Under the pieces are notes generated by a model, which saw only the letters and a list, made by a program, of their open reading frames with translations, searched no databases and was not told where the DNA came from. A stretch of 64,000 nt of DNA from Longimicrobiales bacterium (lineage in GTDB: Bacteria > Gemmatimonadota > Gemmatimonadetes > Longimicrobiales > Gaopeijiaceae), in the NCBI GenBank assembly GCA_965226375.1, contig CBDDCX010000005.1:96001-160000 (forward strand). Reading direction: 5' to 3'. Shown one piece after another: positions 3,390 through 20,486 of this stretch (positions are counted from its first letter, which is position 1; every line of letters starts with the position of its first letter). The translations under genes were made by a program, and so were the position numbers.

Positions 3390-5782
3390 ATGATTCCCGT
3401 ACTGTTCGCCATCCTCCAGATCAGCACCGCGTCGGCTTCGTCCGAGGTGGTCTCGTCTCGCACGGCCGCGCCCGAGTACGACGGCTCAGCGGGGCAGACG
3501 CAGATTGTCACCCCGCGTTTTGTGAACCCGGACGTGAGTGTAGACGGCCGGATCGACGAGTCGATCTGGGATGCCGCACCCGTCCTGACCGGCTTCACAC
3601 AATATGACCCGTCCGAGGGAATTCCCGCCTCGCAGAGAACCGAGGTGCGCGTCTTCGTGACCGATGCCGCGGTCTATTTTGCGATAAAGGCCTTCGATTC
3701 GGATCCGGCCGGCATGCGCGCGACGATGACCGAGCGCGACGAGGTCACACGCTCTAACGACTACGTTCGAGTGATTCTCGACACCTTCAACGATCAGCGG
3801 CGGGCCTATGCCTTCTCCGTGAACCCGTTCGGAGTCCAGCAGGACGGAATCTGGCTAGAAGGTGGAAGCGGTGGCCGAGGAGGACGGCATGGAGGCGGCG
3901 GAGGCGGTGGTGGATTCAACCGCCCGCCCATCGATGATAACCCCGACTTCATTTGGGAGTCTGTAGGACGCCTCACCGACCAGGGGTACGAGGTCGAGTT
4001 GAGGATTCCATTCAAGAGTCTGCGCTTCGCGGAACTCCCGGTACAGTCCTGGGGGGTCCAGGTGACCCGCCGGATCCAGCGTAACGGCTACCAAGAGTCC
4101 TGGGCGCCCAGTTTCGCGAATCAGCCCAACAAGCTCCTGGAGGCCGGTCGACTTCTGGAACTCCGGGACCTCGATCCGGGGCTCTTCATGGAGATCAATC
4201 CCGTGATGACGGGCAGTCTGGACGGCGCCCTGGATGCCAACGACGACTTCCTCCGCGGTGATCCGAACGGAGAATTCGGCGTCAATCTGACGTATGGCAT
4301 TACGTCGAACCTCACCCTCGACGGGACGGTCAACCCGGATTTCAGTCAGGTCGAGGCCGATGCCGGGCAGATCGCGGTGAACGAACGGTTCGCCTTGTTC
4401 TACCCGGAGAAGCGCCCGTTCTTCCTCGAAGGGACCGAGATCTTCGGACTGCCCCGGCAACTGGTCTTCACTCGAACCATTGTCGACCCGATGACGGGAG
4501 CGAAGCTCACCGGAAAGGTGGGAGGCGCCAGCCTGGGGTATCTGGGTGCGGTGGACGAGGCCGGCGATGACGGGGATACCTACGTCAACCTGATGCGACT
4601 TCGGCAGGACCTCGGGGCGGCGTCCACTGTGGGGGCTATCTACACGGATCGGACCAGGAGTAGCGCGGATTTCAACCGGGTCACCGGTTTGGACGGTCGC
4701 TTTGTGATGGCGCGGCGTTATACGCTGCAGGTCCAGGGGGCGGGAAGCTGGGACCGGGACCCCGGCGGCTCGACCACCACCGGTGGTCTGTTCTATGCCC
4801 AGTTGGCGAGGGCCGGGCGGGGTCTGACCTTCAGCGCCCTCTTTGAGGACCTGAGTACGGATTTCAAGCCGGAGAGCGGGTTCATCCGACGCCTTGGCGA
4901 AGCCCACACGCAGACCCAGGCTTCGTATAGCTGGTACGGTGGGCGCGGAGCTTTCGTGGAGCGATGGGGCCCCAGCCTGGATGTGCAAGCATACTGGGAC
5001 CACGACTCGTTCTGGGAGGGAAACCGCTGGAACGAGGCAGAGGCCCGACTCACGATGAGCCTTTCCCTGCGTAACAACCTCAGTGTTTGGCTCACGGTCA
5101 GGAGGTCGGAGTCTCCTCGCCGGTCGAAGACTATGAGGGACTCGTGACTCGGCCGGGGGGTGTGCCACAGTCATTTCTCCCGGATGACGACCAGTTCAAG
5201 GGGCTGAACAGCTTCAACGTCTTCATGTTCGCCAGCGGCTGGGAGAGGCTGCGAGGCCGGATCAGCGCCGACTTCAAGGAAGTGCCGATCTTCTACAGAA
5301 GCACCGGTGCCCCTGTGGACGTAGCAGACAGTTGGGGTGGAGAAGTGAGTCTGACCTTGCTCCCCACGCGCTTCCTGTCCGTGGAAATGGCGGTGCGGAA
5401 TGCCGTACTAAATCGCCAGTTGGACGGGTCCCAGTATTCCCGTGCGACTATTCCCCGGATCAAGGCTCAGTATCAGTTCACGCGAGCCTTCTTCCTGAGG
5501 GGCACCTTGGAGTACGCCAGCGCTGAGCTCGGGGAGCTCCGAGACCCTGAGACCGGCCTACCGATCGAGTCGTGTGATGAAGACGGGTGCGAACTGCTCG
5601 AAGGGTCTTCTGATAACGGAATCCTGCTCGAGGGACTCATGTCGTACGAGCCTTCACCGGGCACGGTGTTCTTCTTCGGCTACACACGACAGATGGAAGA
5701 CGCCAGTCGCTTCGGGTTCGACGACGTCCAGCCTACAGCGGATGGCTTGTTCGCGAAGCTCAGCTACCGGTTCCGCATGTAG
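3390..5782 (+). CDS. CBM9-like domain + DUF5916 outer-membrane protein (one frameshift near 5110)
   Basis: VDGRIDE..W N-terminal domain and NPDFSQVEAD...FYPEKRPFFLE motif. ORF 5087..5782 supplies the C-terminus (FAKLSYRF); adding one T near 5112 joins the frames. Confidence 0.8.
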
Positions 5783-5920: not shown

Positions 5921-5956
5921 CCAGTGCTGTAATCAATTAACCGGATGTGAGGCGGA

Positions 5957-6172
5957 GTGGCGAAAGAAGCGATCGAGATCGAAGGGACCGTCAGTGAGGT
6001 CCTCCCGAACGCCAAGTTCAGAGTAGAGTTGGAGAACGGGTACGAGATACTGGCGTATCTCTCGGGCAAGATGAGGCAGCACTACATCCGCGTCCTCGAG
6101 GGCGATCGGGTCAAGGTCGAGATGTCACCCTACGACCTCAGCAAGGGCCGTGTGACCTACCGGTACAAGTAA
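5957..6172 (+). CDS. infA: Translation initiation factor IF-1
   Basis: [28 protein letters not shown]...SGKMR...[21 protein letters not shown], 71 aa. Confidence 0.98.
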
Positions 6173-6195: not shown

Positions 6196-7111
6196 TTAGG
6201 CCTCGGCGTATTTCCGTAATTGGTCCACCTGTTTCGGCTGTCCGAGCACGATCATCTCGTCACCCGGCTCCAGTCGTGTATTCGCAACTGGGTTGAACAC
6301 GAACTGATGGGTCTCGTCCGTCTGCTTTCTCACGGCGATGACGATCAAGCCTGTTTCCTGAGGATCTGCGCCTCCATGAGGGTGAGGCCCGCCAGCTTAG
6401 AGTCGGACTGGATGGCAGCCTGCTCGAATCGGAGCTCCAACCCGTCTGATCGGGTTGCGATGTCCAGGAACGCGACCACCTCCGGGCGGAGGAGCATGGA
6501 GGCCATGCGAATGGCTCCGCCGACGTTGGGGCTCACCACGTGGTCGGCGCCTGCCCGGTAGAGCTTGTCCAGAGCTGCCTCTTCCAGCACGCGTGCCACG
6601 ATGGTCAGGTCCGGGCTTCAGATGTCTGGCGGAGAGGCACACGAATACATTCTCCGTATCCGCGCTCAAGCAGGTCAGCAGGTCAGCAGGTCAGCAGGCC
6701 GCGGGCCCGGAAGTCCTGCCCCAGGGACATCAGCTCCTCCATGACCTGTCGCCCCGTCCGTCCGCCCCCGCAAAGGACGATGTGGTTCTGCAAAGCCTCT
6801 ATGCTGCGCATGATCCTGTGTCTCCTTCTGACGTCACTCAGATCGAACTCGACGATGAGCGAGGTGATGAGGGCGAACCAAATGCCTACACCGGTAATGC
6901 CGGCCGCCAGCAGGACCATGGTGAAGTCCCGACCGAGCTGAGAGAGGGGCAGTACCTCAGAGAAGCCCACGGCCGTGATCGTGATCACGCTCATGTAGAG
7001 TGCGTCGTGGATGCCCCACCCCTCTATGAGAGTGTAGCCGAGGACTCCCACCAGGGTGAGCCCGACCAAGTAGGCCAGTGCTCCCAGGAAGCGTGGGACG
7101 AACACACGCAT
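6196..7111 (-). pseudogene. Potassium channel with TrkA-N/TrkA-C (RCK) domains, disrupted or mis-assembled
   Basis: Pore TITAVGFSE, HIVLCGGGRTG Rossmann motif, RAGADHVVSP and a TrkA-C tail (FNPVANTRLEPGDEMIVLG) lie in different frames. There is an internal deletion and an 8-bp repeat expansion. Confidence 0.8.
6669..6697. repeat. Tandem 8-bp repeat (GTCAGCAG x3 plus a partial copy)
   Basis: agcag-gtcagcag-gtcagcag-gtcagcag; a single copy would read GLLTCLSADTEN in frame. Confidence 0.9.
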
Positions 7112-7390: not shown

Positions 7391-7672
7391 ATGAACAAAT
7401 CCGATCTGGTAGACGCCCTTGCCGACCGCGCCGGCATGACCAAGGCTGACGCCGCTCGGGCCATGGACGCACTCTTCGGCTCAAACGGCATCGTTGCCGG
7501 TGCGCTGCGGATGGAACAACGCGTCCAGATCACCGGCTTTGGCACGTTCGAGGCTAAGCACCGCAAGGCCCGCATGGGCCGGAACCCTCGCACAGGCGCT
7601 ACAATTCACATTCCGGCTTCCAAGACCCCCGGCTTCCGTGCCGGTAAGGGTTTCAAAGACGCCATTCAGTAA
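7391..7672 (+). CDS. hup: DNA-binding protein HU
   Basis: MNKSDLVDALA...VQITGFGTFE...ARMGRNPRTG...PGFRAGK; GAGGAG RBS upstream. Confidence 0.96.
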   Translation: MNKSDLVDALADRAGMTKADAARAMDALFGSNGIVAGALRMEQRVQITGFGTFEAKHRKARMGRNPRTGATIHIPASKTPGFRAGKGFKDAIQ

Positions 7673-7719: not shown

Positions 7720-7766
7720 AGAGGCCACGCCCCGACGCGGTCAGGGGGGCGTGGCCTCTTCTATTA
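7720..7766. terminator. Hairpin terminator between convergent genes
   Basis: AGAGGCCACGCCCC / GGGGCGTGGCCTCT 14-bp stem followed by TCTATTA. Confidence 0.8.
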
Positions 7767-9368
7767 TCAGCGCCGTGGGTCTTCGGATCTGCGGGGGCGG
7801 GGACGTGTCCCCCCTCGATTTTGGGGTTTGCTACCCTTGCTTCCAGATCCGCGATCGTAGTCCACCCGCGTGCTACGCCCCCGGATACTCAGTCCGTTGA
7901 CGGCCTTGATGACCTTCTCGGCCTCTGAGGGCCGGACCTCCACCAACGAGAACGTCTCGCGGATCTCGATTTTCCCGAACAGAGAACCGTCGACACCGGA
8001 CTCGCCCGCCAGGGTTCCCAAGAGGCTGCCCGGATTCACGCCCTCCATCTCCCCGACGCTGACGAAGAGACGGGTCCAGCCGTCGGTTCCGGTGGCTTTC
8101 TCGGCCCTGGCTTTCGCGGCCGGGTGGCTTTCGGCGGCCGTGCCCGTCGGCTTCGACAGAAGAGCCAGGGCGGCGGCGGCGAGTTCCTGAGGGCTGAATC
8201 GTTCCAGGAGCGGCTCGAGAATCAGAAAGTGAGGCGCGAGATCTTCACGCTTCGCCGTATCCGCCAACCGCTGACGTATCTCGCCGATGCGGCCCTCCAC
8301 CACCGAGGGCGGTGGTGGCAGGGGGCGGACCCCGTAACCCGCTCGACGAGCCGTATCTCGAAAATGTGGGACTTCTCTAGAGACCAGAACGACCGTACCC
8401 TCGCCGCCGCCGCCGTGACGCCGATCCAGGGTGTCCATGTCCGGCGGACAGTCCAGACTGACGATACTCACGCCGTCCCTCGAGGTGAGGGCCGCTAACG
8501 CTTCACGTGCCTGTAGCGGTGCTACCGACAACCAGAGAGGAACCGATTCGTCGCCGGGTTCCCCCGCCATATATCCGTGCAAGGCCAGGAAATCCGCCAC
8601 GTCCGCGACGCGGTCCTCAGAGCGGCAATATACGAGTACGTGTCGAGCCTCATCCGCGAAGAGTTCGGCCACGAGATTGAGGAAACCCTCCACCTTGTCT
8701 TCAGGAGTGATCCGGAAGCGCAACTCTCCCCTCGAGGGCGACTTGGCTACCGGCTCGTCAGAGATCGGGCGGGGTGGAACCTGCACCGCTTTGGGTACCT
8801 GTGCTGAGACGAGCGACTCCACAGCGTCCGTAATCGGAAGGCTGAGGACGATTCGCTGGGTCCCGGTCGCCAGATACTCGAACAGCGCGCATACCGATTC
8901 CAACCCGGAGCCGGCCTCGATGGCGCTGGCTCCGTCTACGACCACGCTCCGGACACCTTCCAAGGTGAGCTGCGAGCCGTCCACCAGAGCGCGAATGTCT
9001 TGGGCGGTGCCGAAGAGGATGTCCGACCGCTCTGGAAGCGCCCACGTACCGCCGAGCGCAGCGACCGTATGCCCTGTGGCCAGGGCGAGCCGTCCCAGGG
9101 ATTCGGCGAGAGCTGTGGCGGCTTCGCTCGTGGCGGTAAGGACCACCGCTCCGGGTCGTTCGGCCCCGCTCTCGACGCTTTCGAGGAGAGCCGCGCCATA
9201 ACAGACGAGGGTGCCGGCTCCGGGTCCTGCGGCCGCGAGCATGTTGTTGCCCCGGCGCATGACGGGAACGGCCGCGCGTTGAAACTCCGTAGGCTCCTCG
9301 AGCCCCTCGGCCGCCAGAGCCTCGACGAGCTCAGGAGCGATGTCGAGATCTTCGAAGGAGTGGCTCAC
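7767..9368 (-). CDS. Degenerate DEAD-box (DeaD/CsdA-like) protein with C-terminal DbpA RNA-binding domain
   Basis: The Q motif is retained, but Walker A reads AGPGAGTL and motif II reads DGAS. C-terminal RLFVSVG...GKIEIRETFSLVEV is DbpA-RBD-like. Confidence 0.8.
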   Translation of the reverse strand: MSHSFEDLDIAPELVEALAAEGLEEPTEFQRAAVPVMRRGNNMLAAAGPGAGTLVCYGAALLESVESGAERPGAVVLTATSEAATALAESLGRLALATGHTVAALGGTWALPERSDILFGTAQDIRALVDGSQLTLEGVRSVVVDGASAIEAGSGLESVCALFEYLATGTQRIVLSLPITDAVESLVSAQVPKAVQVPPRPISDEPVAKSPSRGELRFRITPEDKVEGFLNLVAELFADEARHVLVYCRSEDRVADVADFLALHGYMAGEPGDESVPLWLSVAPLQAREALAALTSRDGVSIVSLDCPPDMDTLDRRHGGGGEGTVVLVSREVPHFRDTARRAGYGVRPLPPPPSVVEGRIGEIRQRLADTAKREDLAPHFLILEPLLERFSPQELAAAALALLSKPTGTAAESHPAAKARAEKATGTDGWTRLFVSVGEMEGVNPGSLLGTLAGESGVDGSLFGKIEIRETFSLVEVRPSEAEKVIKAVNGLSIRGRSTRVDYDRGSGSKGSKPQNRGGTRPRPRRSEDPRR

Positions 9369-9667
9369 GAGGGGTTCCCGGATCCCCGCCCGCCGGCGTC
9401 GCCAGGCTCGTACGGAAGCTCGGTCAGGAACTTCTGAATCTCGTAGTCCATGCGAGACGTGCGCACGCGATCACTCGACGCGACCACGTCGGTATAGGGG
9501 CCGTGTCGGTGGGCGGAGAGCGTCACCGTGCCCTCTCCTCCCGTGTACGTAGCGCTGTGGGTCGAGCTCTTCGACTTGGCCAGGCCGATCCACTCCGGAA
9601 GCAGCTCCTCCGCCTTCGCAAGAACCTCCGCCGGCGAGAGGGCCGTCTTGCGCTGATATCCTGCCAT
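9365..9667 (-). CDS. Hypothetical protein (100 aa)
   Basis: AGAAGGA RBS before the ATG; its stop codon overlaps the next GTG start. Confidence 0.7.
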   Translation of the reverse strand: MAGYQRKTALSPAEVLAKAEELLPEWIGLAKSKSSTHSATYTGGEGTVTLSAHRHGPYTDVVASSDRVRTSRMDYEIQKFLTELPYEPGDAGGRGSGNPS

Positions 9668-9723
9668 GGGATGTCCTTCTGTGTCGACTGGTGCGGTGCC
9701 TACTATACGGCGCGGAACGTCAC

Positions 9724-10311
9724 TCATGTGAGACGCGCCGCCTTCAAGAGTCCTCGAAGTTCGTCGATCCGGAGCGGACCTTCAAGGCTCTGAGAGCCGA
9801 TGTGGAGGGCCGGTGTGCGGCCTACACCCTGCGCCTGCGCCTGCCGTCTCAGCTCCACGACTTCATCGAGGTGACGGTCCACGTCGAGCACAGCCTTGGT
9901 TTCGGTCAGATCCAGACCGAGGCCGACCGCCAGATCCACCAGGACGTCGACCCGCCCGATGTCGGCTCCATCCTGGAACCGTGCCTTGAAGATAGCGTCG
10001 TGCATCCGACCCTCCAGGCCCTTCTCGGCGGCGTGAAGTCGCAGTTCATGAGCCTTTCGGGTCCAGGGCATGAAATCGTGGGAGGGCAGCTCGAGGTCGA
10101 TCTCCGCCGCGAGGTCGACAGCCGACTGCCGAAGGCTCCTCCACTCCGGGCTCGCCGCATCGACCAGGTTCTCGGGGGGCGGCCGAAGCTCGAACGGATG
10201 GCGGACGATGCTCACTTCAGGGGTCAGCAGGCGACCCAGCTGCAAGTCCATCACGTAAGATCCGGGATCTACGTAGTCGAAGTAGAATACGACGTTCGCG
10301 TGCTCGTTCAC
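9724..10311 (-). CDS. DsbA/FrnE-like thioredoxin-fold protein lacking cysteines
   Basis: FYFDYVDPGSY at the CxxC position, PFELRP, TRKAHEL, IFKARFQDGADIG and GVGRTP cis-Pro loop. Confidence 0.8.
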   Translation of the reverse strand: MNEHANVVFYFDYVDPGSYVMDLQLGRLLTPEVSIVRHPFELRPPPENLVDAASPEWRSLRQSAVDLAAEIDLELPSHDFMPWTRKAHELRLHAAEKGLEGRMHDAIFKARFQDGADIGRVDVLVDLAVGLGLDLTETKAVLDVDRHLDEVVELRRQAQAQGVGRTPALHIGSQSLEGPLRIDELRGLLKAARLT

Positions 10312-10440: not shown

Positions 10441-11649
10441 ATGAAATACAGCGACAACATCTCCCGGCTTCAGCCCTCGGCCACCATCGCCGTGAGCTCA
10501 TTGGCCAAGCGCCTCCAGGCCGAAGGTCGTGACATCATCGACCTGAGCGCCGGTGAGCCCGACTTCGACACGCCCGCATGGATTTCCGGGGCGGCCATTG
10601 AAGGCATCCATGCAGGCAAGACGCGGTACACCCCCACACCCGGGATGCCCGAGCTCAGGCGCGCCATTGCCGGATACCTCGAATCGGTGGCCGGCCGCCC
10701 CATCGATTGGGAGGGTGTCGTTGTCGGAAATGGTGCCAAGCAGTCCCTGTTCAACGCCATCTTCGCGCTGTTCGGGCCGGGCGACGAGGTCCTGGTGGCG
10801 ACTCCATTCTGGACGAGCTACCCGCAGATCGTCTCCCTCGCCCGGGCGGAGCCGGTCCCGGTCTCGGGAAGTGCGGATCGCAATTTCCTGCTTACGCCCG
10901 ACGATCTCGATTCGGCGTACACCGAAAAGACCAAGGGACTCATTTTGTGCTCCCCCTGTAATCCCACGGGAGCCGTTTATTCGCAGGACGAATTACGGAC
11001 GATCACCGAGTGGGCCAGGGATCGTGACGTGTGCCTTGTGGCGGACGAGATCTACCGGGAGATCTATTTCGGTGACGATCGGGCTTCGGCCCCGAGCATC
11101 CTCGAGCTCGCGGAGGCTTCGTTGGGCCGGCACGTATTAATCGATGGCGCCTCGAAGGCCTTTGCCATGACGGGTTGGCGCATCGGCTTCTCATACTCCG
11201 ATGTGGAGACAGCAAAGAAGCTGAATTCTCTTCAGAGCCATACCACCTCGAATGCGGCGGCGCCGTCCCAGATGGCCGCCCTGAGCGCTTTTGGCGATCC
11301 GGCACGTGCCCGGGGAGCGGCTCAGGAGATGGTCGTGGCGTTTCGTCGCCGGAGAGATCTGGTCGTCAAGCTCCTGAGGGAGCTGCTCCCGGAGCTCGCA
11401 TTCGTGGAGCCCACGGGGGCGTTCTACTTCTTCATTCGGGTGGACTCGCTCTTCCGGGACGGGATCTCGGGCTCCGCGGATCTGTGCACCTGGCTCATCG
11501 AGGAGACGGGGGTCGCCATGGTGCCCGGAGTGGCTTTCGGTGACGACCGATACGTCCGTATCAGCTTTGCCACATCGGATGAGTTGCTTCAGAAGGCCAT
11601 CGAGCGGGTCGCCGGCGCGATACGGGAGTCGGCGTCCGCGGCTGGCTGA
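10441..11649 (+). CDS. aspC: Class I/II PLP-dependent aminotransferase (aspartate aminotransferase-like)
   Basis: LSAGEPDFDTP, SPCNPTG, DEIY, and SKAFAMTGWRIG containing the PLP lysine. Confidence 0.9.
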   Translation: MKYSDNISRLQPSATIAVSSLAKRLQAEGRDIIDLSAGEPDFDTPAWISGAAIEGIHAGKTRYTPTPGMPELRRAIAGYLESVAGRPIDWEGVVVGNGAKQSLFNAIFALFGPGDEVLVATPFWTSYPQIVSLARAEPVPVSGSADRNFLLTPDDLDSAYTEKTKGLILCSPCNPTGAVYSQDELRTITEWARDRDVCLVADEIYREIYFGDDRASAPSILELAEASLGRHVLIDGASKAFAMTGWRIGFSYSDVETAKKLNSLQSHTTSNAAAPSQMAALSAFGDPARARGAAQEMVVAFRRRRDLVVKLLRELLPELAFVEPTGAFYFFIRVDSLFRDGISGSADLCTWLIEETGVAMVPGVAFGDDRYVRISFATSDELLQKAIERVAGAIRESASAAG

Positions 11650-15923: not shown

Positions 15924-17204
15924 GTGGAAGAAGAGACTAAGGAGGAAGCTCCCGAGGCCAAGACATTCGAGGATCTCGGGGTGTCGGCGCCGCTACGTGC
16001 CGCCATCGAGGCCCTCGGGTGGGAGCATCCGACTCCGATTCAAGTGAAGGGCATCCCGGCGGGGCTCGCGGGGCACGATTTGGTGGGGATCGCCCAGACG
16101 GGTACGGGAAAGACCGGCGCGTTCATGATCCCCTGCTTGGAGAGGATTGAGGCGGGACAGGGTCTGCAGGTCCTGGTGTTGTGTCCTACCCGAGAGCTGG
16201 CTCAGCAGGTCTGTGACGATACCGACGCTTTGGCCAAGGGCACGAAGATTCGGTCCGCGGCCATCTACGGGGGCGTCAGCTATGGCCCGCAGTTGGAGGC
16301 TCTCGACAACGGCACCGAAGTCATGGTCGCGACACCGGGGCGCTTTCTCGATCATATGGGGCGCGGTAGGGTCAAGCTCGGTGGGGTGCGCACGTTGATC
16401 CTCGATGAGGCGGATCGCATGCTCGACATGGGCTTTCGTCCGCAGATCGAGGGTGTATTACGGGAGATGAAGCGGGAGCGGCAGACCATGCTGTTCTCGG
16501 CTACCATGCCCCACGGCGTTCATGACTTGGCCTCTCGCCTCACCAAGGACGCCGTCTGGGTCGAGGCGGCCCGGTCGGGAACCAAGGCTGAGGGGATTAC
16601 CGAGGTGGTGTACTCGGTGAAGCCGGAGATGAAGCCGGACCTGCTGCTGCGCCTTCTGGAGGATCCCTCTTGGGAACAGGTACTGGTTTTCACAAAAACC
16701 AAAGCGGGCGCCGACGCGCTCAAGACCCGTCTCGATCGCCACGGCATCCGTACCGAGGCCTTGCACTCGAATCTCCGCATGGCTCATCGGACCCGGGCTT
16801 TGGAGCGCTTTGCCGAGAAGAAGGTGCGGGTTCTGGTAGCGACCGACATCGCCCAGAGGGGCCTTGATGTGGAAGGCATCTCTCACGTGGTCAACTACGA
16901 CGTGCCCCAAGATCCCGAGGACTACACGCACCGCATCGGTCGAACCGCCCGTGCGGGCGCCGTCGGTACTGCGGTGACGTTTGTGGCGGCCGCCGACCTC
17001 GGGGCCTTCAAGTCGCTCATGTACCACATCGAACGTGACCTGGACCGGGTGCACCTTCCCGAGTTCGATTACACGGGCACGCCGCAGACGGCCTCTAGCG
17101 CGTCGCCCACTCGGGGGCGCCACTCCCGCTCTCCGACCGGCATGGGATCCCGCACTGCAGACGAGCTCACCGACGAAGAGCTGGCGAAACTCCTCGAGTA
17201 CTAG
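15924..17204 (+). CDS. DEAD-box RNA helicase (RhlE-like)
   Basis: AQTGTGKT, PTRELA, TPGR, DEAD, SAT and HRIGRTAR are all intact. Start placed at GTG 15924. Confidence 0.93.
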   Translation: MEEETKEEAPEAKTFEDLGVSAPLRAAIEALGWEHPTPIQVKGIPAGLAGHDLVGIAQTGTGKTGAFMIPCLERIEAGQGLQVLVLCPTRELAQQVCDDTDALAKGTKIRSAAIYGGVSYGPQLEALDNGTEVMVATPGRFLDHMGRGRVKLGGVRTLILDEADRMLDMGFRPQIEGVLREMKRERQTMLFSATMPHGVHDLASRLTKDAVWVEAARSGTKAEGITEVVYSVKPEMKPDLLLRLLEDPSWEQVLVFTKTKAGADALKTRLDRHGIRTEALHSNLRMAHRTRALERFAEKKVRVLVATDIAQRGLDVEGISHVVNYDVPQDPEDYTHRIGRTARAGAVGTAVTFVAAADLGAFKSLMYHIERDLDRVHLPEFDYTGTPQTASSASPTRGRHSRSPTGMGSRTADELTDEELAKLLEY

Positions 17205-19091: not shown

Positions 19092-20486
19092 GGTCAAGTC
19101 CCGAGTTGTGTGTAAAAGTGAGAGGAAGCTCCTCGATGCTTCTGTTAGGCTGCCTTGGCGACCTCCTTCGGTTCGAGAAGCGTGAGATCCAGGTAGCGAC
19201 GTTCGCTCCAGGCCGCAGTAGTCCTTAGAGCAACCGCAGTGATGAGGCGGAGCGCGCTGGCTCGGTCGGGGAAGGCGCCGGCGCTCCGGATCCGACGCTT
19301 GATCTCGGTGTGCAGGCGCTCGAGGCTGTTCGTGGTGCGCAGTCGGGCCCAGTGGGGCTCGGGGAACGCGTAGAACTGGGTGGCGGCCGTGAAGCCCCGC
19401 TCAAGCACGTTGACTGCCTCGGGGAGCTCCTTGTGCCAGCGCGCCGTGATCTCGGCCAGGCGCTTCTTCGACTCAGCGAGCCCGGGGGCCCGGAAGACGG
19501 CGGCAACCTCGCGCGCCACACGCTTGCGCAGGCGATGCGGGACCTTGGCCAGCACGTTGCGTTGCAGGTGGACAGTACAGCGCTGGCAGCGCACCTCGGG
19601 CAGGAAGCGGCGCACCGCGGCTGCCAGGCCCGCGTGCTCATCCGCGATCACGAGCTGGACGCCGCTGAGACCACGCTCCAGGAGTTGCTCGAGGAGCTCC
19701 GACCAGCTGTTCTCCGATTCCTCAGGGCCCAGCGTGATGCCCAGGAGCCGGCGGTGGCCGTCCGGGCCCACGGCGTAGGCCACGAGCGCGCTCACGTTCT
19801 CGACCTTTCGGGCCCAGCGGGCATCGAGGAACGTCGCGTCCAGGTACAGGTAGGGGTGGGCCCCCTCGATGGGTGCACTCCGCAGCGTTTGCACGCCCTC
19901 GTCGAGCCGCTTCGCGACCCGGCTCACCGTCGAGCGTCCCACGCGCTCACCCATGAGTGCCTCGGTCACGTCGCCCATCTTGCGCTGCGACACGCCGCTC
20001 ACGTAGGCCTCCACCATCATCGCATCGACTTCTTCACTCCTGCGCTGGTAGCGACCCATCACGTCGGCGGGCGAGCCGCCTTCCCGGCTGCGCGGGACCG
20101 TCACGTCGATCTGACCCAGGCTCGTAAGCAGGCGCCTCAGATACGTCCCGTTCCTGTGGCCCTTCCGGCTGCCGACCCGCTCGAATCGTCGCGCTCCGAC
20201 CATCGCCTTCAACTCCTCCTCCAACACCATCTCGAGCGTTAGCCGGATCGCGCCCTGAAACAGCGACTTCAAATCCTGACGCAGCTCGTCTTGCGTGGCC
20301 CGCTCAACTTCGACCATCTTTTCCATGAGGAAGCTCCTTGTTCCGGTTCCGACCTGCTCACGCAGGCCGGACTCCCGGGTTCATGTGATGATGAACAATT
20401 CACAAGGAGCTTCCTCTTTCTTTTCCGGGCTGTCCACCCTCCTCGGACGCCCTCACCCCCTTTTACACAATCTTAGTGACACTACC
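19092..20486 (-). mobile_element. Complete IS256-family insertion sequence (1395 bp)
   Basis: Imperfect 27-bp terminal IRs (GGTCAAGTC...TGTGTAAAAG / GGTAGTGTC...TGTGTAAAAG, 18/27). 8-bp target duplication CGGGAGGA at 19084-19091 and 20487-20494. Confidence 0.95.
19145..20326 (-). CDS. IS256-family (mutator-type DDE) transposase
   Basis: RNGTY.R.L.T.LG, YLYLDAT, VIADEHAGL, QRCTVH and RTTNSLER; 393 aa, intact. Confidence 0.96.
   Translation of the reverse strand: MEKMVEVERATQDELRQDLKSLFQGAIRLTLEMVLEEELKAMVGARRFERVGSRKGHRNGTYLRRLLTSLGQIDVTVPRSREGGSPADVMGRYQRRSEEVDAMMVEAYVSGVSQRKMGDVTEALMGERVGRSTVSRVAKRLDEGVQTLRSAPIEGAHPYLYLDATFLDARWARKVENVSALVAYAVGPDGHRRLLGITLGPEESENSWSELLEQLLERGLSGVQLVIADEHAGLAAAVRRFLPEVRCQRCTVHLQRNVLAKVPHRLRKRVAREVAAVFRAPGLAESKKRLAEITARWHKELPEAVNVLERGFTAATQFYAFPEPHWARLRTTNSLERLHTEIKRRIRSAGAFPDRASALRLITAVALRTTAAWSERRYLDLTLLEPKEVAKAA

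Follow-up and report, generated by a model that had tools for sequence, protein, structure and literature searches.

A class-wide DeaD/CsdA-type protein of Gemmatimonadota that lacks the ATP-splitting residues and may act as an ATP-independent RNA binder

DeaD/CsdA of Escherichia coli, CshA of Geobacillus, and Hera of Thermus share a domain order in which the helicase core is followed by a dimerisation segment, an RNA-binding domain (RBD), and a basic tail. In these dimeric proteins, the RBD is described as the main RNA anchor (PMC11850223), and CsdA is reported to anneal RNA without ATP, with its basic C-terminus as the likely site (PMC3590231). DbpA of E. coli and YxiN of Bacillus subtilis carry an RBD of the family PF03880; DbpA has no dimerisation segment and is an active enzyme gated by hairpin 92. 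Here, we describe a gene, referred to as pseudo-DeaD (P0001; 7767..9368, minus strand), which was identified by open reading frame (ORF) calling, Pfam, and AlphaFold2 modelling in a 64,000-nucleotide stretch of a Longimicrobiales bacterium genome (contig CBDDCX010000005.1, positions 96,001 to 160,000; hereafter, the window, to which the coordinates refer). Its 533-amino acid (aa) product appears to share the domain order of DeaD/CsdA, CshA, and Hera but differs from them in lacking the Walker A Lys, the DEAD Glu, SAT, QxxR, motif V, and motif VI, in having a shorter RecA2 domain, and in carrying a basic triad that the active relatives do not have. The RBD family is shared with DbpA and YxiN, whereas the basic RBD loop and R92/R96/K102 of DbpA are not kept. 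Pseudo-DeaD resembles the non-motor half of DeaD/CsdA and stands outside the active family.

In kind, it is most comparable to Utp25/Def, a eukaryotic DEAD-box pseudohelicase, which is likewise described as having kept the fold, lost the motifs, and remained conserved (PMC9539457). According to that description, Utp25 has an N-terminal disordered region, has neither a dimerisation segment nor a DbpA-type RBD, and belongs to the nucleolar small subunit (SSU) processome; the two proteins appear to be of separate origin. Stand-alone DbpA-RBD genes in Treponema and Gemmatimonas aurantiaca were mentioned by Lopez-Ramirez et al. 2011 in one sentence ('data not shown'; PMC3093544), the G. aurantiaca gene being without detectable DEAD or Helicase_C domains. 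The genes are there called small and mainly RBD, and neither a dead core nor a class-wide family is recognised in that sentence. The pseudo-DeaD family probably includes the G. aurantiaca gene. Literature searches, which covered top results only and left most subscription journals outside coverage, turned up no account of a family of DEAD-box pseudoenzymes in bacteria. A pseudohelicase case is reportedly found in Caenorhabditis elegans. The present analysis adds that active DeaD is polyphyletic, that RBD and tail are interchangeable, and that the family has a basic triad of its own.

The pseudo-DeaD frame has a GTG start and, as had been described in a reading of the window from its letters alone (hereafter, the sequence-only reading), zero internal stops, and its third-position GC content (GC3) is 0.72, compared with 0.71–0.78 in three adjoining genes. 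The layout is of the DeaD/CsdA type, with all parts on the minus strand. RecA1 (aa 1–199; 8772..9368) keeps its fold with the catalytic motifs gone, and RecA2 (aa 213–349; 8322..8732) is shrunken. These domains are followed by a dimerisation-type helical segment (aa 356–405; 8154..8303; LEPL...ELAAAA), which was recognised by a sub-cut-off match to Pfam DeaD_dimer, by the model, and by conservation, and which the sequence-only reading had overlooked. The DbpA-type RBD (aa 430–506; 7851..8081) and the basic low-complexity tail (aa 508–533; 7770..7847) that it had reported as kept were both found again, the former as a Pfam match of 71 bits to PF03880 (residues 433–502) and the latter by charge count (net +7) and model. 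The Pfam DEAD family matches residues 27–166 at 31 bits, above its cut-off. No Helicase_C match was found by Pfam in pseudo-DeaD, nor in any of 57 family members at E<=0.01, at which threshold DeaD_dimer is matched in 17 of the 57. NCBIfam scores are all far under their cut-offs (DeaD, 38.6 versus 989 bits; CshA, 70.4 versus 646; another model, 29.5 versus 890). The top PDB sequence match is CshA 5ivl (E 5e-15, residues 4–404 aligned).

The AlphaFold2 model, built from an input alignment of 134 rows including 8 intact DeaD rows, has a mean predicted local distance difference test (pLDDT) score of 90 and a predicted template modelling (pTM) score of 0.70, and it retains the helicase fold. The modelled RecA1 superposes on that of E. 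coli DeaD (5gju) with a Z score of 30.6 and a root mean square deviation of 1.6 A over 196 residues. Two RecA-like domains are present, Foldseek and VIA matches spanning residues 2–354 of the model, and the top Foldseek matches are of the DbpA/YxiN type (7pli, E 6e-23). The dimerisation-type segment forms three helices in the model and aligns with the segment of CshA both by sequence and by model, in the latter case to 5ivl up to residue 406. For residues 205–410, the ESM Atlas returned only Helicase_C/DeaD_dimer clusters, at 0.90 or less. A homodimer prediction for residues 212–408 scored 0.33 against a mark of 0.42, with controls at 0.00–0.08, which speaks neither for nor against pairing.

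Alignment with the intact helicase at 15924 (P0002) reproduced the substitutions listed in the sequence-only reading, namely AQTGTGKT>AGPGAGTL, PTRELA>ATSEAA, TPGR>TAQD, DEAD>DGAS, and SAT>SLP. The degenerate Walker A AGPGAGTL (aa 47–54; 9207..9230, minus strand) has Thr in place of Lys, and the degenerate motif II DGAS (aa 145–148; 8925..8936, minus strand) lacks the catalytic Glu. The listed change of motif VI (HRIGRTAR>RRHGGG) was also found, but it is not a substitution alone, as about 6 residues have been deleted and the motif is shortened to DRRHG. In addition, the Ia Arg and Ib GR of the core are lost, and the QxxR helix and motif V of RecA2 have been replaced. ATP hydrolysis is reported to depend on the Lys of the P-loop, the Glu of DEAD, and the arginines of motif VI, including the arginine finger (PMC2948006); given these established roles, the loss of the residues is predicted to remove it. 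An ATPase-dead RNA clamp is doubtful in the strict sense, and a clamp of the exon-junction type is unlikely, because the parts that make up most of the core RNA groove (the Ia Arg, the Ib GR, QxxR, and motif V) are lost together with the ATP-bridging motif VI.

This degeneracy is shared by relatives. Close homologues were represented by 120 rows (pseudo-DeaD and P0004–P0122; the best 120 of 347 relatives in a protein search, with 47–99% identity), some of which carry the source labels Gemmatimonadota or Longimicrobiales. Neither GK[TS] nor the DEAD Glu occurs in any of the 120, and DEAD, ARGLD, or HRIGR occurs in none of 63 locus rows; the sequence-only reading would have given way had close orthologues carried canonical motifs. 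Among the best 150 representatives of a 1.8-billion-protein search, a GK[TS] string is present in 11, in 9 of which it lies at the true site in a family member, and a DE[AI][DH] string is present in 5, in 4 of them in motif II; no family member among these representatives has both. No family member was found with the Walker A Lys together with DEAD, or with motif VI. In a class-wide alignment of 226 rows, which are related and partly redundant, the Walker A Lys is present in 14. Erosion appears to have been stepwise, since some f2 and f6 members hold GK[TS] without DEAD, f1 is without the Lys, and in f4, f5, and f8 the Q motif and P-loop are mostly gone.

The Q motif (F5...Q30; 9279..9356, minus strand) is kept in pseudo-DeaD, as the sequence-only reading had stated, and within its own order, and it is missing from many distant members: F5 is present in 119 and Q30 in 120 of the 120 close homologues, and the Gln in 131 of the 226 class-wide rows. 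The aromatic residue preceding the motif is Leu in pseudo-DeaD and Phe in 47 of the 120. Conservation at 118–120 of 120 is also seen for G48/G50/G52, D145, P178, P308, and R317. It is possible that the Q motif and the glycine-rich loop bind AMP, ADP, or ATP unhydrolysed and so tune RNA binding; the near-invariance of F5, Q30, G48, G50, and G52 (119–120 of 120) and the retention of GK[TS] by some f2 and f6 members would suit such an adenine-nucleotide sensor. The glycines may, however, be structural, and nucleotide sensing cannot be the shared function because no more than 131 of the 226 rows have Q30 and because f4, f5, and f8 show no recognisable loop. A sensor is thus regarded as improbable.

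The ratio of nonsynonymous to synonymous substitution rates (dN/dS; Nei–Gojobori) between pseudo-DeaD and three relatives was 0.09, 0.11, and 0.16, below 1 as expected under the sequence-only reading; in the same comparison, it was 0.08, 0.08, and 0.15 for the adjoining aminotransferase and 0.05–0.07 for the intact RhlE-like helicase, all of these values being rough at a dS of about 1 or above. By domain, the RBD was lowest (0.03–0.09), and both dead RecA domains were constrained (0.10–0.19 for RecA1 and 0.07–0.16 for RecA2; overall, 0.07–0.19). Pairs with a distant family gave 0.085–0.25. A pseudo-DeaD gene is carried by approximately 176 of the 185 sampled class genomes (Gemmatimonadota-labelled relatives), a count that combines RBD matches, intact-DeaD matches, and a dead-core profile, with G188 left out; 60 carriers were verified at the sequence level, and the others have an RBD match not accounted for by an intact DeaD. 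With a helicase fold in the model, lost catalytic motifs, and purifying selection, pseudo-DeaD qualifies as a predicted pseudohelicase.

That the gene is decaying, or that its product still works as an ATPase despite its unusual motifs, might be suspected from the long branches, the stepwise class-wide erosion, and the 4 representatives that keep a DE-x-D motif II and the 9 that keep a true GK[TS]. The dN/dS of about 0.1, the open frames throughout, and the uniform motif loss in homologues, with no member holding the Walker A Lys plus DEAD or motif VI, leave next to no room for either. Because canonical motifs are found in 0 of 120 close homologues, dN/dS is 0.09–0.16, and nearly all class genomes carry the gene, decay is refuted, in keeping with the sequence-only reading. 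An example of decay in the same genome, unlike pseudo-DeaD, is the RCK-gated potassium-channel gene just downstream (6196–7111, minus strand), which survives as four fragments in two reading frames and has an internal gap. It contains a short repeated stretch near 6670–6700 and is apparently frameshifted in G001 (L077) and G011 (L075) and intact in other own-family members.

The distribution of intact DeaD differs from that of the dead form. Among 201 genomes of the phylum, PF03880 is matched in 172 and an intact DeaD (E<=1e-120) in 44. Intact DeaD is present in 43 of the 185 class genomes; it was not found in approximately 134 of the 176 carriers, and 42 sampled genomes have both genes. No RBD match was obtained in 15 genomes of other classes, and profile A1 did not find pseudo-DeaD in three closely examined genomes of other classes. 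In this genome, pseudo-DeaD is the only PF03880 match, and no intact DeaD was found here or in any of 24 sampled own-family genomes. In an earlier sample, a second DeaD-like gene was seen in three own-family genomes (G012, G015, and G021) and was confirmed as intact in G021 (L080); the own family is therefore not wholly without intact DeaD. The helicase at 15924 is intact but has neither a dimerisation nor an RBD match, and is, by its sequence, not a DeaD; a second intact RBD-less helicase lies on contig C7. Many family members are labelled 'ATP-dependent RNA helicase DeaD' by their sources.

In a tree of 55 rows (LG+C20, quick search), 20 dead proteins formed one clade with a Shimodaira–Hasegawa-like approximate likelihood ratio test (SH-aLRT) support of 100, although long branches alone could group dead rows. 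Subgroups of this clade largely track genome families. By contrast, the phylum's intact DeaD proteins (10 rows) were scattered among Actinomycetota, Planctomycetota, Chloroflexota, and others, and monophyly of the phylum's intact DeaD was rejected by the approximately unbiased (AU) test (p = 5e-6). The simplest reading of these sequence data is that the dead gene is old and vertically inherited and that active DeaD has been regained several times.

These distributions bear on the proposal, made in the sequence-only reading, that the protein inhibits a true DeaD. As intact DeaD occurs in only 43 of 185 class genomes and is polyphyletic, inhibition cannot be the general role, and in this genome, the 24 own-family genomes, and some 134 carriers, there was no intact DeaD found to inhibit. 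A related explanation, in which a dead subunit heterodimerises with active DeaD and damps or redirects it, can draw on the retained dimerisation-type segment, on the 42 genomes with both genes, and on a report that Hera heterodimers engineered to pair an active with a dead subunit do form and are slower at unwinding (PMC11850223). It is nevertheless highly improbable, given the lack of intact DeaD in this genome, in 24 of 24 sampled own-family genomes, and in most carriers, the polyphyly of the intact copies, and the dead form's own LEPL signature in the segment. Loss of the RBD does not go with the presence of an intact DeaD, a link that was considered and ruled out: within f5, the pseudo-RBD match is lacking in 12 of 25 genomes with DeaD and in 5 of 15 without, counts that include G188 and genomes without any pseudo-DeaD found.

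Several non-catalytic parts are retained by the family. In the 57-row core alignment A1, four of the six columns conserved at >=90% (P386, L387, A397, and A399) lie in the dimerisation-type segment. A putative C-terminal RNA-binding element is present in all 75 members measured (a row at a contig edge and five duplicates were dropped, and L044 was unscored). The RBD is found in 64, of which 10 have a tail shorter than 10 aa, whereas the 11 measured RBD-less members have tails of 53–240 aa with a net charge of +9 to +21. RBD-less members number 13 in total, two having been found in the class-wide alignment. All 13 belong to f5 (L081–L091, L185, and L188) and end in long R/G/D/E/F-rich repeats resembling condensate-forming tails. 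The first loop of the pseudo-DeaD RBD, GEMEGV, is like GRDDGV of E. coli CsdA and unlike GKKAKM of DbpA; the mean charge of this loop is -1.2 in f1, the own family, compared with 0.1 in the remaining dead members and +2.3 in intact DeaD.

This loop bears on a ribosome-assembly role, which the sequence-only reading had suggested. In one version, the RBD would sit on 23S hairpin 92 or other rRNA of the immature 50S subunit while the dead core blocks early folding, in a Utp25-like manner. Near-universal vertical retention suits a housekeeping target, the RBD, where kept, is the only DbpA-type RBD of the genome in the approximately 134 carriers without intact DeaD, and Utp25 offers a precedent, although for the eukaryotic small subunit (PMC9539457). 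The RBD loop is, however, CsdA-like, and CsdA is reported to be without a hairpin 92 preference (PMC3093544); the RecA1 patch R92/R96/K102 described for DbpA (PMC8536315) corresponds to G92/L96/T101 in pseudo-DeaD. The RBD is missing from thirteen members, and a release step is unexplained without ATP turnover. Such a placeholder is rather unlikely, and the DbpA-like hairpin-92 role is weakened by the loop and the RBD-less members, whereas a general RNA-binding or scaffold role remains the best reading of the sequences.

A feature gained rather than lost may be a basic triad on RecA1, all three codons being on the minus strand. R39 (9252..9254), before strand 1, is K/R in 94% of the 226 rows and in 4 of 81 active controls; R172 (8853..8855), at the start of strand 6, is K/R in 96% and in 0 of 81, with Thr in active helicases; and K193 (8790..8792), before strand 7, is K/R in 99% and in 4 of 81, with Asp, Asn, or Glu in active helicases. 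The full triad is present as K/R in 201 of 226 family rows, 218 of which have all three columns filled, versus 0 of 81 controls, and it is retained in 11 of the 13 RBD-less members. At positions 39, 172, and 193, 18 intact DeaD proteins of the same phylum have Ala/Glu, Thr, and Asp/Asn. The triad is thus a sequence-based candidate for a gain of function, not loss alone. Three unrelated proteins (P0193, P0203, and P0238) were removed from the class-wide alignment; they are long, have 3–7 tandem DEAD-type RecA1 domains, most of them degenerate, and lie outside the pseudo-DeaD family.

In the model, strands 1, 6, and 7 have R39, R172, and K193, respectively, at their N-terminal ends. The RecA1 sheet order is presumably 7-1-6-5-2-4-3, and with this order the triad would lie side by side on the sheet edge opposite the former active site. 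The covariation signal, which is noisy, weakly favours this placement: the pairs N42-V191, V174-V191, R39-T168, and G169-K193 bring the three triad segments near each other, and the most frequent strand pairs in the covariation top 200 include 1-7, 6-7, and 1-6.

The explanation favoured here, at about even confidence, is that pseudo-DeaD is a class-wide DeaD/CsdA-type protein without ATP-splitting residues that functions as a dimer, binding or chaperoning RNA independently of ATP and carrying a new basic patch for docking. It is favoured because the remaining parts are those through which CsdA, CshA, and Hera are reported to dimerise and to gain most of their affinity for RNA (PMC11850223), and which probably carry the annealing that CsdA performs without ATP (PMC3590231). 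Two copies would pair via aa 356–405 in the manner of these proteins, and the RBD and/or the basic tail would hold RNA with little sequence specificity. R39/R172/K193 would form a new patch, on the RecA1 sheet edge opposite the dead active site, for a conserved anionic partner, in the simplest case the RNA backbone. By holding two RNA segments together, the dimer may promote annealing or protect structured RNA, which would be the ATP-independent half of CsdA action; unwinding would then fall to the genome's RhlE-like helicases. A bolder proposal is that the class's resident DeaD-type gene became a pseudoenzyme before the radiation, its new R39/R172/K193 surface, on the back of the dead RecA1 domain, docking one conserved RNA or ribonucleoprotein (RNP) target, and that active DeaD was regained repeatedly by horizontal transfer in lineages needing it; this is tentative, and we lean against it.

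Several observations weigh against a dimeric RNA binder. The DeaD_dimer (PF25399) match at 356–405 reaches 18.7 bits, under the cut-off of 23. The net charge is -17 overall, -15 in RecA1, and -1 in the RBD, and with an acidic protein and a negative f1 RBD loop, RNA affinity may be modest. Neither the RBD nor the tail alone can be the selected feature because the former is dispensable in 13 members and the latter in 10; the invariant part is the core with the dimerisation-type segment, which fits a protein scaffold too. The direct triad pairs 39-172, 39-193, and 172-193 rank only 769, 1372, and 7132 of 18336 in covariation, so that spatial clustering of the triad is weakly indicated, by the presumed sheet order and weak covariation. 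Finally, profile A1 did not find pseudo-DeaD in nine class genomes (G146, G090, G131, G121, G219, G030, G133, G138, and G215), and the gene is thus probably not essential, although these genomes are incomplete and a missing match does not prove that the gene is absent.

In a protein scaffold or adaptor, the basic patch would dock an acidic protein, such as a ribonuclease, the RhlE-like helicase, or a ribosomal factor, and the RBD or tail would bring this partner to RNA or condensates, supplying what the tail-less RhlE-like helicase and a short RNase E/G lack. Besides the invariance of the core and dimerisation segment, this explanation is consistent with the sole RNase E/G match of the genome, which lies in a 514-aa frame (G000:C8:1720495-1721307). 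The scaffold tail of an E. coli-type RNase E needs a longer protein than this, and a long E. coli-type degradosome scaffold seems absent given a frame of only 514 aa. The RhlE-like helicase lies within approximately 8 kb of pseudo-DeaD here and in 7 fetched own-family loci, and the basic tails of bacterial RhlE are reported to cause phase separation and to bind RNase E even when ATPase activity is lacking (PMC11260450). Against a scaffold, no partner gene co-occurs class-wide, and selection in this lineage acts most strongly on the RBD. This explanation is unlikely, and it ranks next after the dimeric RNA binder.

The surroundings of the gene were compared in 80 fetched stretches, whose proteins were sorted by motif into 18 intact DeaD and 62 dead forms. 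The start of pseudo-DeaD overlaps the stop of a preceding small conserved gene (GTGA; 9365..9727, minus strand; 100–120 aa), which belongs to no known family, has no Pfam match, and is confined to Gemmatimonadota clusters in the ESM Atlas. In most own-family loci, it overlaps the pseudo-DeaD start or lies within about 40 bases of it, the distance being 1.3–2.8 kb in several others. It is a probable operon partner in the own family only; as an obligate general partner it was ruled out, being found at 18 of 62 pseudo loci. A DsbA-like thioredoxin-fold gene (9724..10311, minus strand; Pfam DSBA; 14 of 62 loci) would be the first of a probable three-gene operon. The divergent class I/II aminotransferase gene (10441..11649, plus strand) and the convergent downstream HU gene (7391..7672, plus strand) serve as locus markers, being present at 44 and 33 of 62 pseudo loci, respectively, and at 0 of 18 intact-DeaD loci; one or the other is found at 53 of 62 pseudo loci versus 0 of 18. 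A promoter scan gave no sigma-70 site, and putative terminator-like matches lie near 7739–7759. Metatranscriptome contigs (four sets from one study) contained HU and gene scraps, not pseudo-DeaD, in small shares, and the contig gap is uninformative.

Other features of the window include the intact tail-less RhlE-like DEAD-box gene (15924–17204, plus strand), a few kb from pseudo-DeaD on the opposite strand; this neighbour is common in own-family genomes (L061, L063, L065, L066, and L075–L077), which may be mere synteny. A large outer-membrane-type gene (3390–5782, plus strand) consists of two overlapping ORFs with an apparent frameshift near 5090–5150, possibly an assembly error. The ORF at 5951–6172 (plus strand), two genes from HU and pseudo-DeaD, is presumably IF-1-like, and the gene at 19145–20326 (minus strand) is taken, from its appearance, to encode an IS256-like transposase. 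A Bdellovibrionota cluster in the ESM Atlas has Helicase_C and DbpA with no DEAD domain listed, perhaps an independent motor loss.

The family would make it possible to test what the CsdA-type dimerisation segment, RBD, and tail do without a motor, and it offers natural deletion variants (RBD-less, tail-less, and Walker-A-retaining) and three residues to mutate. It also corrects annotation, as many members are named DeaD helicase though most carrier genomes are without intact DeaD. If the bolder proposal of a conversion before the class radiated is true, pseudo-DeaD would stand beside Utp25 as its bacterial counterpart, and nature would have provided an experiment that parts the ATP-independent from the motor functions of DeaD/CsdA.

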